DNA from: Planctomycetales bacterium
GTDB taxonomy: Bacteria; Planctomycetota; Planctomycetia; Pirellulales; Lacipirellulaceae
Direction: 5' to 3'
NCBI GenBank assembly: GCA_020427145.1
Contig: JAGQOU010000338.1
Location: 1,406 to 65,405 of the forward strand
Length of the DNA: 64,000 nucleotides
A model generated the notes under the pieces. It was not told the origin of the DNA, searched no databases, and was given only the letters and a program-made list of their open reading frames with translations. Within the stretch, counting starts at the first letter, position 1. Every line of letters starts with the position of its first letter. Of this stretch, positions 33,271 through 54,959 are shown piece after piece. The translations under genes and the position numbers were made by a program.

Positions 33271-33330
33271 CTTGATGGCTTTCGACGGTCGCTGACAAGC
33301 GATATCTCAGCGGTCGCATGGCGGGCCGAT

Positions 33331-35109
33331 TCACGATCGCCGTCGCCCGCGGCTTTGGCCGGCTCGGCTGACCATCCCGAGCGTGAGCGCCAGGGCGGCT
33401 AGCAACGCTGCCGACGGCTCGGGGGTCGCCGCCAGGGCATTCGCCGACGCTGCCCCCGCTCCGAAGTTGGCTTGCCAATCGGCCAAATCCGCCGCCCCCA
33501 GCGCGGTCGGGGACTCGCCCCGTTGCCACGCGAGAAAATCGCCGCCGTCTACGTCGAAGTCGCCGTCAAAATCGCCGGTCGGGCCCGGTGCCGTGACGGT
33601 GAGCATCGTGTAACCAGCCAGATCGCCTGTGGTGAGATACTCAAGCGTGTAATCGTCGCCGTAGGTGGCATCTGTGAGAGAAGCGAGATGTCCGTCCTCG
33701 GGATTCCAGTAGCGGATAGCGTCGTTTCCCTGGACGAATCCCAAGAACTGCGTCAGCGAGTCGTCGACATCACCGGGGATTGCCAGCATGCCGCCACTCG
33801 CCATAGCAATGGAATTGTCGTGACGCGGAGTCGCGCTAATCGTAAGCGCGTAATCAACCGTCAACAATCCGCCGTCAGTGATATTGAGCATCGCGTCCCC
33901 GCCGACATCAAGTACTCCACGGACGTTCCACTTCGATCCGGCGCCATGAATGCGAACCTTCCCGGATGAGCTGGAAAAGGACCCAATCGCACCCCAACTG
34001 CAGCTTACCTCGCCGCCGCTAGTGATGTTGAGCGTGCCGTTACCCCCACGCCCGACGTAAAGACCATAGTTACTGGTGGTCCAATTTGCGTTGGCGCCTG
34101 ACACAGTCACATCGCCCACCGCGCCCCATTCGTAGCCGATGTACGCCCCTTCGCTGCGAACCGAGCCGCCTTCAGCGATTGCGACGTTCCCTCTGCCGCT
34201 AATACCGGCGTAGAGTGTCGAGCTATTCCAGACCGACCCCTCCCCCTCCACCGTAACCCAGCCAATGGAATTCTCATCGACGCCGATGCGGCTGTGTCCC
34301 TGATTGCTAACTGTTCCCCTATTGCTAATAGAAAGCGTGCCCGTGCCGGCGCGGCCAACCATGAGACCGCCGGTGTTGGTCAAAGTCGATCCCGAGCCAT
34401 CGACCATCACGACGCCGCTGGAACCGGAAACATCCCCGATAATGCCTGTAAAGTTGCCGCCCGCCATGACGTACCCGCCGTTAGAAACGGTGAGCGAGCC
34501 TATTCCTTCACGACCAACTAAGAACTCGCCACGCAATTCCCAATTCGTGCCGGCGCCATCAACTGAAACCTGACCGGTCGACCCGGGGGCGTCGCCGATG
34601 ACGCTCGTGTCTTGGCTGCGGAGTGCACCGCCTTGGGAAATCGTTAACATTCCGTGGCCGCTATTGCCAACCGAAAGAGACTCGTCGACAGACCAGCGCG
34701 AATTCAAGCCATTCACAGTGACCTGGCCCATGGAGCCCGAGTTCTGACCGACGCGTCCTGCGTTGGTCCGAACCGATCCACCTCCATTGATTTCAAGTAT
34801 TCCTGAACCGTCGACGCCGATGTCGAGACTCTCGACACTGTGCCAAGTCGATCCTTCGCCAAGGACCGTTATCTGACCGAATGCGCCGGCTTGGTATCCC
34901 GCGTACCCAGACGACGACATGAGGTCGCTATCGGAATCAACGACTATCGTTCCGCTTGCTGAATTGCCAATGTAGGCAGTCGTTTCAGTTGTCCACGCTC
35001 CTGGATCAGCCGGGCCTATGTCGCCGGTCGAGTTGATGGCAGCCCGCACCGGAGCCGCCGAGTGATACAAGGTGACGACAAGAAGCGCAGAGCCTATGTG
35101 ACGCAACAT
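33331..35109 (-). CDS. Secreted tandem-repeat (beta-helix-like) protein with dockerin-like + PEP-CTERM tail
   Basis: 592 aa with a signal peptide. About 8 tandem units of about 47 aa (G.G.L.I..GG.V......IG...GS.G.V.V.G.GS.W.....L.VG). The tail at 33334-33576 reads GDFDGDFDVDGGDFLAWQRG...LADWQANFG...TPEPSAALLAALAL. Confidence 0.8.
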   Translation of the reverse strand: MLRHIGSALLVVTLYHSAAPVRAAINSTGDIGPADPGAWTTETTAYIGNSASGTIVVDSDSDLMSSSGYAGYQAGAFGQITVLGEGSTWHSVESLDIGVDGSGILEINGGGSVRTNAGRVGQNSGSMGQVTVNGLNSRWSVDESLSVGNSGHGMLTISQGGALRSQDTSVIGDAPGSTGQVSVDGAGTNWELRGEFLVGREGIGSLTVSNGGYVMAGGNFTGIIGDVSGSSGVVMVDGSGSTLTNTGGLMVGRAGTGTLSISNRGTVSNQGHSRIGVDENSIGWVTVEGEGSVWNSSTLYAGISGRGNVAIAEGGSVRSEGAYIGYEWGAVGDVTVSGANANWTTSNYGLYVGRGGNGTLNITSGGEVSCSWGAIGSFSSSSGKVRIHGAGSKWNVRGVLDVGGDAMLNITDGGLLTVDYALTISATPRHDNSIAMASGGMLAIPGDVDDSLTQFLGFVQGNDAIRYWNPEDGHLASLTDATYGDDYTLEYLTTGDLAGYTMLTVTAPGPTGDFDGDFDVDGGDFLAWQRGESPTALGAADLADWQANFGAGAASANALAATPEPSAALLAALALTLGMVSRAGQSRGRRRS

Positions 35110-54300: not shown

Positions 54301-54959
54301 CCGAGTTGTATAAAGACGTCGACGCCGTGACGCCGATCGACGCCGGCGCACGCGTGTTCCGCGTCCGCTACATCGGCGGAAATTCAGCGGACTTCACCGG
54401 CGACGGGTTCGTCGACGGCGCCGACCTGTCGGTGTGGGAAACCAACTTCGGCGCGCCCAGCGGCGCCTCGCGCACCACCGGCGACGCCGACGCGGATCAT
54501 GACGTCGATGGCGCGGACTTCCTCCTCTGGCAACGCAGCTACTCGCCCGCTCCGGCGGCGGCAAACGAGGGCCTCGTCGCCGCTTCCAGCGGCTCCACCG
54601 CGTCGCTCGTCACAGCGGCGGCGAGTTTCGAGAGCGAACCGGCGGCGGCTGACTCACCCGACGAATCGTTAGCCGCGATGCCGTCGGTGGCCGCCGCCTG
54701 CGATCTGCTCAATCATGCGATGGGGACCGAGCACGACGGCGACGCTGCGGAGTTGCACGACGAGTTCTACGCGGATGTTTCGAGCCATTGGCGACCGCGA
54801 ACTGCGACCACGGAGACGGGATTCGACGCACCGAGCTTGAACCGGGCGGCGAGGCCAGGCCATCACGCTCAGCAGCACGACCAGGCGACTGACGCCGCGG
54901 GCGAGTTGGAGGGGATCGGACGGGCGCTGCGACATCTGTTGCGAGGCCGCGTCAGGTAA
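51360..54959 (+). CDS. Giant exoprotein: malectin-like CBM - discoidin-like module - PQQ-type sugar (sorbosone/glucose) dehydrogenase-like propeller - double dockerin-like repeat
   Basis: 1199 aa. Non-ATG start (TTG 51360 or GTG 51375). N-terminal RGRRPVSHSLHVEHLEPRHLLAG motif. Malectin-like FLINFQ...GLTYGWS...NGDYEVTVVVGD. Discoidin module at 52401-52862. SGDH-like blocks (LPTNIAFVP, YVTELYGTIKVV, GPDGMLYVHNGDG, GKILRMTLDGQPLADNPF, AYGFRNPFG). Dockerin-like pair at 54387-54542. 138-aa tail with no PEP-CTERM. Confidence 0.85.
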   Translation: MRGNAVAIPHRPRNHGALSRGRRPVSHSLHVEHLEPRHLLAGDVFLINFQFDEVPTPDSYVRDVGALFGDRGNGLTYGWSSDHTDVSRDRGVDLDQRTDTLIHFHQNANWELQLPNGDYEVTVVVGDPGTNDGVHTVNVEGVSFFAAVPDGNTPLLATQVVTVADGRLTLDQGAAADKATRIDYIHVIGVPSAPNAAPAAPTVTEPAAEGQQVNPTDVHMEAVGFSDGDGNAHKSSDWEIWTTGASPELVWATIGIQGVERLHTHLGDGFFQNSHAGRLDLLPNTDYQLRVRFRDDAGSVSAYSVRNFHTTSATTTFPLQIEDVVASPAPAWDTVFGAPVELPDGTTILSPGDAIVAIDTDGNSSYPGGESPPNAVDGTLAKYLNFGEINSGFIVTPATGSSTVTGFQITTANDADERDPTAWQLFGTNSPVVSTDNSTGAGESWTLIDSGSVALPLARDTLGPLVAVTNTTAYTSYRMVFTGVRNSGAANSMQIGEIQFFADDAGPATPPSLRMETPDGTPLLRIDGDSAPGNLVTDSPTLPSHKPVRIVIDAGSRGLFLGQSDLTFTDETDNEHTIFLPEVDLAAGESLTLWAALDGATYFGTAGQTAPNFDSLARAAQLDLPFIALQSGFIVEEVAGGMQLPTNIAFVPNPGSAPGDPLFYVTELYGTIKVVTNDGTTSDYATGLLNFNPTGNFPGSGEQGLTGIVVDPATGDVIVSRVRDTDGQPGGAHHPQVVKFTSLDGGLTAATETVLLDMVGESQGQSHQISNVSIGPDGMLYVHNGDGFDASTALNLDSYRGKILRMTLDGQPLADNPFYNAGNGINSRDYVYAYGFRNPFGGAWRAADGTHYEVENGPSSDRFAKVNPGQSYQWDGSNASMFTNALYNWDPAHAPVNIAFVQPETFGGSGFPSQYWDQAFVSESGPTYGLGPQVLGKRIVGFQLDAQGNVTSGPETLVEYVGMGRGTVVGLAAGPDGLYFTELYKDVDAVTPIDAGARVFRVRYIGGNSADFTGDGFVDGADLSVWETNFGAPSGASRTTGDADADHDVDGADFLLWQRSYSPAPAAANEGLVAASSGSTASLVTAAASFESEPAAADSPDESLAAMPSVAAACDLLNHAMGTEHDGDAAELHDEFYADVSSHWRPRTATTETGFDAPSLNRAARPGHHAQQHDQATDAAGELEGIGRALRHLLRGRVR

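Follow-up and report, generated by a model that had tools for sequence, protein, structure and literature searches.

The 64,000 nt stretch of the Planctomycetales contig JAGQOU010000338.1 analysed here (the window) has a high GC content (0.636). Between 33.3 and 55 kb a tRNA-Val(TAC) gene is followed by a run of genes for modular exported proteins, and with them one extracytoplasmic function (ECF) sigma factor and one predicted anti-sigma factor. Is this block a mobile island that entered at the tRNA gene with its own regulator, or a resident part of the chromosome? An earlier note on this DNA had described it as a tRNA-flanked, self-regulated surface locus of 22 kb, and as a candidate accessory system. 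The evidence presented below makes it probable that 33.3–55 kb consists of two adjoining units and is not one mobile island. The first (segment A, 33.3–39.2 kb; 5.9 kb) is likely to be a lineage-specific segment encoding four exported proteins next to tRNA-Val; it may be accessory, with mobility unproven. The second, from 39.2 to 55 kb and continuing to about 58.9 kb, most likely represents a conserved chromosomal neighbourhood of the Pirellulales, including named Lacipirellula and Aeoliella genomes. Because one relative's contig (L091) is colinear with it and the relatives' cluster loci lack tRNA-Val, the 39.2–55 kb part, about two thirds of the block, is read as a neighbourhood that is probably inherited vertically and in which exoproteins are regulated by an ECF sigma with a lectin-type anti-sigma. 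The features of the block and its edges are as follows.

33197..33271, +, tRNA-Val(TAC) (ARAGORN; Rfam 72.3 bits)
33331..35109, −, exported repeat protein, 592 aa (TIGR04393, E = 1.8e-85, 7 stretches)
35871..36800, +, FGE-sulfatase-domain protein with signal peptide and PEP-CTERM tail (PF03781, E = 1.1e-16)
37136..37702, +, small lipoprotein, 188 aa, lipobox LAFASGC (read from the sequence)
38295..39179, +, alpha/beta-hydrolase-like exoprotein with GHSFG motif, dockerin-like module and PEP-CTERM tail (Abhydrolase_6, E = 3e-4, below cut-off)
39186..43805, −, CotH/LTD giant, 1539 aa (Pfam)
44167..45687, −, predicted anti-sigma factor, 506 aa, directly downstream of the sigma gene on the same strand (56-nt gap)
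45744..46376, −, predicted ECF sigma factor of the Rhodopirellula/Verrucomicrobium family (TIGR02989, 144.4 bits; cut-off 124.55)
46377..47835, no strand, divergent non-coding region from sigma to disc3, GC 0.60 (no family match in any frame, no Rfam match)
47755..49644, +, 3x discoidin-like protein (disc3) with dockerin-like module and PEP-CTERM tail (weak DUF5000/F5_F8_C matches, three internal repeats)
49693–50805, +, DUF1559 protein with prepilin-type N-terminal methylation motif (PF07596, E = 3e-39; N_methyl)
50802–51242, +, lipoprotein gene, its start overlapping the DUF1559 stop by 4 nt
51360..54959, +, GSDH giant, 1199 aa (PF07995, E = 1.4e-27)
55076..58914, −, DUF1552 (HXXSHH) gene and its DUF1585/87/88/92/95-CBM60 partner (PSD) (Pfam)

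The cluster in related genomes

A comparison anchored on the block's own genes, the anti-sigma and the CotH giant, was decisive. The same set (ECF sigma/anti-sigma, CotH/LTD giant, disc3, and DUF1559 with its lipoprotein) recurs, rearranged and in some loci incomplete, in at least six Pirellulales genomes. Gene orders are listed below, where <> marks divergently transcribed neighbours.

L091, 67-kb contig: PSD, DUF1552, (273-aa PEP-CTERM), lipoprotein, DUF1559, disc3 <> sigma, anti-sigma, CotH
L084 and L085, 234-kb and 201-kb contigs: disc2, lipoprotein, DUF1559, disc3 <> CotH, M10 peptidase, sigma, anti-sigma
L083, 32-kb contig: DUF1559, lipoprotein, PEP-CTERM protein, sigma, anti-sigma
L086, Lacipirellula, 1.8-Mb contig: sigma′, FecR-type anti-sigma′, disc3, DUF1559, CotH, GSDH giant, GH76
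L090, Aeoliella mucimassa: CotH, 141-aa open reading frame (ORF), DUF1559, anti-sigma′′, sigma′′ <> PATR giant; no disc3 ortholog

L091 is colinear with the window from 58.9 to 39.2 kb at 47–72% amino-acid identity (PSD 66%, DUF1552 71.5%, lipoprotein 48%, DUF1559 62%, disc3 65%, sigma 67%, anti-sigma 47%, CotH 69%), the only difference being a 273-aa PEP-CTERM gene in the place of the GSDH giant. Since this synteny runs through to the DUF1552/PSD pair, which occupies the same relative position in both, 54,959 is not a boundary.

Across several genomes the orthologs stay linked at 37–72% identity despite rearrangement, and two pairs, sigma/anti-sigma and DUF1559/lipoprotein, are invariably adjacent. 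The sigma orthologs are 57–67% identical and always paired with an anti-sigma, in every ortholog locus examined; those of disc3 are 52–65% identical in L082/L091, L084, L085 and L086; and the DUF1559 and lipoprotein genes remain together in L083, L084, L085 and L091 (58–63% and 43–52% identity, respectively). No similarity was detected between the 141-aa ORF of L090 and the window lipoprotein. The CotH giant is the conserved anchor of the cluster, with full-length orthologs at 59–73% identity in about 35 clusters, including Lacipirellula, and at 52–57% identity in Aeoliella, Posidoniimonas and Botrimarina. The GSDH giant is a variable member, replaced in L091 and found directly after CotH in Lacipirellula L086 (58% identity over 1037 aa).

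Genes of mannan-directed glycoside hydrolase (GH) families lie beside the cluster in relatives: in L091, two GH92 genes, GH125, ROK and MFS (14686–24605, next to CotH), and in L086, GH76 (18394–19971, after the GSDH giant). The corresponding side of the window has no GH92/GH125/GH76-type genes and holds the four genes of segment A.

No tRNA-Val occurs near the cluster in any of the relatives' loci examined. Of the proposed tRNA-flanked, self-regulated surface locus, the part that stands is the self-regulated exoprotein locus: in several distinct genomes the sigma/anti-sigma pair stays by CotH, disc3, and DUF1559 with its lipoprotein, and this conserved linkage carries the claim. The part that falls is the 22-kb tRNA-flanked accessory island, given the colinearity of L091 across its right boundary, the lack of tRNA-Val by the relatives' clusters, and the lack of integrase and att sequences described next.

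The tRNA-Val junction

ARAGORN and Rfam agree on the tRNA-Val(TAC) gene (33197–33271) that had been placed at the left edge. It ends a conserved lysS/lolC-like/lolD-like/ilvE block, the housekeeping run before the tRNA comprising:

26421–28106, lysS
29646–31247, lolC/E-like permease
31240–32061, lolD-like ATPase
32248–33105, class IV aminotransferase, called ilvE in the earlier note and here

An independent 3.5-kb contig (L001) carries the junction of ilvE, tRNA and first gene with 100% identity. A mismatch-tolerant search of the window for the 3′ end of the tRNA (as a 22-mer allowing at most 3 mismatches and as a 15-mer allowing at most 2) matched only the tRNA itself, and Pfam and NCBIfam scans revealed no integrase or transposase in any ORF or in the stop-to-stop frames of long non-coding stretches; both results agree with the earlier failure to find att duplication or integrase. 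The long non-coding stretches of the block also held no remnants of mobility genes or pseudogenes, and Rfam reported the tRNA only, at gathering score and at E ≤ 0.1.

An empty site was sought among 80 ilvE loci from GTDB species representatives, about 50 of which were scanned for tRNA-Val. None was seen in the 80 loci, and those scanned have no tRNA-Val after ilvE. The best GTDB relative at ilvE is only 77% identical; the block upstream of ilvE is conserved in relatives, downstream synteny is poor in every lineage, and the largest family shared downstream occurs in 6 of the 80 loci. With relatives at ≤77% ilvE identity, the ilvE-anchored comparison is uninformative.

It is thus highly improbable that the whole of 33.3–55.0 kb is a horizontally acquired island at tRNA-Val with its own regulator. 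As in tRNA-integrated islands, a tRNA gene is adjacent, products are exported or surface-located, and GC and GC3 (GC at third codon positions) are somewhat below those of the flanks; in addition, 0 of the block's genes are found downstream of ilvE in the 80 relatives' loci. However, every relative has poor synteny downstream of ilvE in any case, there is no integrase, att repeat or mobility remnant, the right boundary is crossed by synteny, and the gene set is kept in at least six genomes without tRNA-Val and inherited with its flank in one related species. The GC3 dip also recurs in orthologs (see below). Membership of the class of tRNA-integrated islands is therefore not supported, failing on integrase, att and empty site, with 33.3–39.2 kb left unproven.

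Two other places gave indications of acquired DNA. In Lacipirellula L086, a tRNA-Arg(TCT) gene followed by a phage-type integrase gene and a DUF5906 gene (22110–23362) lies about 7.5 kb from the CotH gene, and looks like a genuine tRNA-linked integrative element, near the cluster but separate from it. In the window, the interval 28107–29645 between lysS and the lolC-like gene (GC 0.585) contains a gene for a Uma2-family putative endonuclease (28286–28837) and an unassigned 238-aa ORF (28898–29614), with GC3 of 0.73 and 0.63; in L002, the closest relative, a gap of only about 80 nt separates lysS from the lolC-like gene. Acquisition is more plausible for this small insertion than for the block under study.

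Base composition

Measured against a background of 64 kb of genome only, the block has a GC of 0.618 (left flank 0.641, right flank 0.661) and a median GC3 of 0.68, compared with 0.82 for both flanks pooled (Mann–Whitney p = 7e-4), so that the earlier impression of lower GC was correct. The dip is carried by the small genes (GC3 of sigma 0.68, DUF1559 0.67, lipoproteins 0.62–0.64, segment A 0.64–0.75); the giants have normal values (0.79–0.82). In relatives, the sigma ortholog has the lowest GC3 of its locus in L082, L084 and L085 (e.g., 0.51 vs. about 0.60; 0.63 vs. 0.76), and in L083, L085 and L086 the lowest or near-lowest value is that of DUF1559. Because low GC3 recurs in the relatives' orthologs, much of the dip seems to be intrinsic to these genes and no sign of recent transfer.

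The stretch least correlated with the whole window in tetranucleotide usage is 33–38 kb (r = 0.81–0.82). Between 39 and 55 kb the correlation is 0.85–0.92, the same range as at 16–22 kb and 60–64 kb. Of the compositional deviation expected across the block, only that of 33–38 kb was thus seen in tetranucleotides, with 39–55 kb falling within the range of the window.

Segment A

The synteny with L091 breaks at about 39.18 kb. On the window side lie the four genes of segment A, and in L091 CotH is followed by M10 peptidase, two GH92, GH125, ROK and MFS genes.

The 592-aa repeat protein has a signal peptide, seven T5SS/PEP-CTERM-associated repeats (a predicted beta-helix), a dockerin-like module and a PEP-CTERM tail, and its gene has a GC3 of 0.66. 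The relatives' loci contain no ortholog, giving only short repeat-level matches. PATR or T5SS-repeat giants adjoin the cluster in L085, L086 and L090, so the protein may belong to an extended neighbourhood. The FGE-domain protein scores 20.6 bits for PEP-CTERM (cut-off 20.7). Its FGE-PEP-CTERM family comprises more than 5,300 homologous clusters, and since the contexts of these homologs are unrelated they say nothing on the left segment; one homolog adjoins a Y1 transposase and an integrase fragment. The 188-aa lipoprotein (GC3 0.64) has no Pfam or NCBIfam match.

The fourth product had been called lipase-like: its GHSFG motif is present, but the alpha/beta-hydrolase match is sub-threshold, and its PEP-CTERM score is 18.8 bits. 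The ORF is open back to 37578, while neither the signal peptide nor the coding signal starts before 38295 (codon-position GC from there onward 0.61/0.45/0.78), making 38295 the probable start. An ORF at 36813–37370 and another at 46598–47182 show atypical codon-position GC and no family matches, and look spurious.

Could segment A alone be an old, decayed insertion or a variable islet, replacing the M10 peptidase and GH92/GH125 genes that stand beside CotH in relatives? The synteny break, the lowest tetranucleotide correlation of the window, a GC3 of 0.64–0.75, the presence of long non-coding stretches and the occurrence of the FGE-PEP-CTERM family in many contexts, once by transposase and integrase sequences, would all agree with this. 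Set against them are the lack of any integrase, repeat or remnant, the presence of PATR/T5SS-repeat giants near the cluster in three relatives, and the fact that a repeat gene and non-coding DNA could by themselves distort k-mer statistics. On this evidence such an origin is rather doubtful, though more plausible than acquisition of the entire block.

Genes of the conserved cluster

Most of the earlier gene descriptions hold and the shared modules are real; DUF1501 was a miscall, and malectin is unsupported. The gene convergent with the GSDH giant (55076–56563, −), taken for DUF1501, matches DUF1552/HXXSHH in Pfam, and the GSDH giant gives no malectin match even at E ≤ 1. The statement that the block contains one ECF sigma and one anti-sigma is borne out by the TIGR02989 match and the single-pass model of the anti-sigma.

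The CotH giant has, in order, a Planc_extracel-like N-terminal motif, LTD, a discoidin domain (F5_F8_C), CHB_HEX_C/Fn3_assoc, a CotH kinase-like domain, a second LTD and two dockerin-like modules. Judged by its domain score, it is a predicted member of the CotH kinase family (PF08757, 76.4 bits against a cut-off of 23.8, covering 320 of 322 profile positions). The GSDH giant consists of a Planc_extracel-like N-terminal motif, one discoidin-like module, the GSDH beta-propeller and two dockerin-like modules. In both giants, and in the 465-aa ORF at 59291–60688, an LE-x-R-x-LL-[SA]-type N-terminal motif is found that is not a classical signal peptide (43700–43805, −; 51360–51500, +; 60500–60688, −); the match of the GSDH giant to Pfam Planc_extracel (PF07595) is weak (E = 0.036). 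For disc3, the ATG at 47836 is the probable start, and is conserved in alignment A1. The PSD protein combines DUF1585/1587/1588/1592/1595 with a CBM60 xylan-binding module and a cytochrome-c-like motif.

Modules are shared at the DNA level. A dockerin-like sequence (DxDxDGxVDGxDFLxWQR) is present in five products, and a discoidin-like module is common to the protein encoded at 47755 and the GSDH giant. Each dockerin-like module has one full DxDxDG loop and the Dockerin_1 scores are 16.7 and 14.1 bits (cut-off 22.9); because type I dockerins have two loops and pass this cut-off, the modules are named dockerin-like only. PEP-CTERM tails, read directly as [VIT]PEP[ST], then a hydrophobic helix and a basic end, number four in the block and two outside it, with Pfam scores of 18.2–21.6 bits, around the 20.7 cut-off. 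No exosortase gene occurs within the window.

The predicted anti-sigma factor and its lectin-like domains

The sigma factor contains only the Sigma70_r2 and r4_2 regions (TIGR02937, 59.5 bits against 42.9) and is classed from its sequence as a predicted ECF (group 4) sigma-70 factor. Gene order and modelled architecture identify its neighbour as the putative cognate membrane anti-sigma. Residues 1–61 form a three-helix domain (AlphaFold2 places helices in 4–61, with pLDDT 82–92 over the first 50), a single hydrophobic, transmembrane segment lies at about 95–115, and two extracytoplasmic beta-sandwich domains follow (approximately 170–340 and 345–495), each with an acidic Ca/sugar-loop motif. 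Mean pLDDT of the model is 74, rising above 90 in the sandwich domains; the linker with the transmembrane segment is disordered.

There is no match to Pfam at threshold. Word search returned two relatives, and a metagenome scan confirmed none, while HMMER, run against 1.84 billion representatives, gave a family of 104 representative clusters, mostly of about 500 aa and with the same architecture. Among 34 aligned members, the zf-HC2 model matches only one, and DUF4114 is weakly matched by 29 (E ≤ 1, best 1.1e-7). In the first family motif (G305-W-D-D...D323-x-D325-x-x-D328), D307, D308, D325 and D328 are invariant; in the second (G470...D473...D482...D485), D473, D482 and D485 are nearly so. 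The second motif aligns to the 'VGSEDGTDNDYNDAVVV' Ca/sugar loop of LecB (hhalign E = 5.9e-4 across 36 columns, against a hand-entered LecB sequence). In Foldseek, the sandwich matched LecB/PA-IIL, RS-IIL and thrombocorticin at probability 1.0; the TM scores were 0.69–0.72, those for LecB and RS-IIL being 0.70–0.72. The model therefore points to a sensor with a beta-sandwich lectin fold and an acidic, predicted Ca/sugar-binding loop.

DUF4114 has been described as a Ca-dependent sugar-binding domain related to LecB-type lectins (PMC9109919), and mannose binding has been shown for one of its members (PMC11934332). The modelled lectin-like domains suggest that glycan sensing may control the neighbouring surface proteins. 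The GH92, GH125 and GH76 mannosidase genes beside the cluster in relatives fit a mannose-type ligand, which is circumstantial evidence.

A different signal is conceivable: the cluster would be real, but the anti-sigma would sense Ca2+ or the state of the envelope, its DUF4114-like domains being Ca-binding or structural. The conserved acidic motifs are primarily Ca ligands, and likeness to true lectins is mainly at the level of fold. In LecB-type lectins, however, the Ca ions are themselves the sugar-binding site, DUF4114 domains have been linked to sugar binding by the two studies just cited, and the presumed output genes are rich in carbohydrate-binding modules, with glycoside hydrolases flanking the cluster in relatives. 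Sensing of Ca2+ or envelope state is accordingly considered unlikely.

Upstream regions

The non-coding region between sigma and disc3 is about 1 kb long in relatives too. An 8-mer, GGTATCGT, occurs once in the whole window, at 46417–46424 (− strand), about 45 nt upstream of the sigma ORF. It is also found upstream of the sigma orthologs in L083, L084 and L085, where GCAAC stands about 15 nt before it; it was not found in L082/L091. These three relatives share the GCAAC...GGTATCGT block together with a sigma70-like TTGCTG-N17-TAC[CG]AT, of which only GGTATCGT recurs in the window. The 8-mer is a possible, tentative autoregulatory promoter element.

Pairwise and multiple alignments of the sigma, CotH and disc3 upstream regions, made in search of a promoter, were set aside as too diverged. 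No exact bipartite 5+4-mer is common to the five sigma upstream regions, and a generic scan for sigma70 promoters and terminators gave results at chance level.

The same region contains an extended hairpin of about 70 nt (47562–47641, +), 115–190 nt upstream of the discoidin-like ORF, with a minimum free energy of −56.1 kcal/mol (z = −7.0). The orthologous position in L082/L091 also folds (z = −5.1), with inner stem and loop 83% identical over 36 nt and a differing outer stem. The hairpin occurs once in the window and matches nothing in Rfam.

Other genes of the window

Genes of the same types lie outside the block:

3068–4204, second DUF1559 gene
5972–8098, −, PL4 rhamnogalacturonan lyase with dockerin-like module and PEP-CTERM tail
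8560–9780, +, 2x discoidin-like PEP-CTERM paralog, 42–47% identical to the 3x protein
63489–63986, −, second ECF sigma (regions 2 and 4)

An own sigma factor and modular exoproteins are therefore the local norm in these 64 kb, and within the window the block is weakly distinctive. This bears on whether the block is a functional unit at all, or a chance run of families expanded in planctomycetes (PEP-CTERM, DUF1559, ECF sigma) in which the sigma acts elsewhere. The size of the FGE-PEP-CTERM family and the lack of a shared promoter also speak for a chance run. But the genes that remain linked across several genomes, at the identities given above, are orthologs and not mere family members, and the sigma/anti-sigma and DUF1559/lipoprotein pairs are always adjacent, which makes a chance run quite unlikely and favours the conserved neighbourhood.

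The second ECF sigma gene is directly upstream of, and overlaps, a gene for a 1031-aa Ser/Thr kinase-TPR protein (60586–63681, −), a sigma-plus-kinase arrangement described for planctomycetes. Two PQQ_2/BamB-like beta-propeller proteins are encoded in the left flank (395–1714, +; 4452–5969, −). The protein of 4452–5969 is 28% identical to the commonest post-ilvE gene of the relatives, that of the 6 loci noted above (e.g., L005 10855–12315).

Comparison with known systems

The closest working analogue appears to be sigmaI/RsgI of Clostridium thermocellum, which senses polysaccharides and controls dockerin-bearing cellulosome genes (PMC6852018, PMC10328401, PMC6582324). Both combine an alternative sigma with a membrane anti-sigma carrying an extracellular sensor of carbohydrate-binding type (predicted in the present case), and both lie near genes for secreted, glycan-directed proteins that bear dockerins (here dockerin-like modules). 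The resemblance would be functional only, and membership fails: the sigma is a two-domain ECF factor (TIGR02989) and not sigmaI, none of the anti-sigma family members scanned contains an RsgI-type domain, the N-terminus of the window's anti-sigma does not resemble that of RsgI, and the sensor is a tandem DUF4114/LecB-like one, in contrast to CBM3, PA14 or GH10. The modules are half-dockerin-like, with no cohesin known, and the host is a diderm planctomycete.

The nearest family-level relative is FecR-type signalling and the ECF signalling linked to polysaccharide utilisation loci. Like FecI/FecR and the pairs linked to such loci in Bacteroidetes, the window has an ECF sigma and a single-pass anti-sigma that are predicted to be co-transcribed and are linked to exported proteins, and the L086 pair at the equivalent position is indeed FecR-type. 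Unlike FecI/FecR, the window anti-sigma has no FecR domain and no adjacent TonB-dependent transducer, and its sensor is itself lectin-like, which suggests direct ligand binding.

With LecB/PA-IIL, RS-IIL, BclA and DUF4114, the sensor shares the beta-sandwich (TM about 0.7) and a C-terminal G-x-E/D-D...D-x-D-x-N/D-D Ca/sugar loop. It differs from LecB-type lectins in that the domain is duplicated and fused via a transmembrane helix to an anti-sigma domain, and in a sequence likeness below family thresholds. The exoproteins in turn resemble PEP-CTERM/exosortase substrates, in view of the four PEP-CTERM tails and a repeat protein matching TIGR04393, which is defined by PEP-CTERM association. The usual setting of such substrates is missing, as the window has neither an exosortase gene nor an exopolysaccharide biosynthesis locus, and a planctomycete-typical dockerin-like module precedes the tails.

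A proposed regulatory circuit

Gene content, sequence-based signals for export and anchoring, the conserved linkage and the predicted sensor fold lead us to infer the following regulatory steps. The N-terminal helical domain of the anti-sigma would hold the sigma factor. Ca-dependent binding of a mannose- or fucose-type glycan by the two LecB/PA-IIL-like (DUF4114) extracytoplasmic domains of the anti-sigma would free the sigma to transcribe the neighbouring genes. Export of the products of these genes would use Sec signal peptides, lipoboxes, the prepilin leader and the Planc_extracel motif; PEP-CTERM/exosortase sorting would anchor them, and their discoidin-like and dockerin-like Ca modules would attach to extracellular glycans.

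Several observations weigh against the conserved, lectin-regulated neighbourhood proposed here. L082 and L091 belong to a single species (98.6% identity), which makes the number of independent genomes smaller than that of loci. No promoter motif could be defined as common to sigma and its neighbours, so that it is linkage alone that points to a regulon. The window anti-sigma scores 17 bits for DUF4114 (cut-off 27), and a PDB sequence search with the family profile and the C-terminal domain gave no significant match (PA-IIL, E = 2.5). In distant relatives the equivalent pair has another sensor, FecR-type in L086 and of an unrelated type in L090; because these pairs use other sensor domains, the lectin sensor is not essential to the cluster. 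GC3 really is somewhat lower in the block than in its flanks. Lastly, the ilvE/tRNA-Val junction is carried by no relative closer than 77% ilvE identity, and segment A may have been inserted at the tRNA.

In its full form, the proposal is of a planctomycete-specific circuit, in which an ECF anti-sigma with tandem LecB-like, Ca-dependent lectin domains would directly sense mannose/fucose polymers and switch on the co-inherited CotH giant, discoidin-like PEP-CTERM proteins and DUF1559 proteins, a cellulosome-like (sigmaI/RsgI) logic that would have arisen independently in the Pirellulales. This is put forward tentatively, as a possibility with less than even chances.

Implications

As an island, the block is of little consequence: nothing in the evidence indicates mobility, and for the most part it is inherited with its flank. 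As a conserved neighbourhood, it ties large and opaque families (the pilin-like DUF1559 proteins, the exoproteins with dockerin-like module and PEP-CTERM tail, and the secreted CotH/LTD giants) to one ECF sigma/anti-sigma pair. The anti-sigma family, with about 100 clusters and without a Pfam assignment at threshold, might be described as a new type of anti-sigma architecture. If the proposed circuit is correct, it would offer a first way into the function of two very large families, DUF1559 and 'dockerin-like plus PEP-CTERM'.

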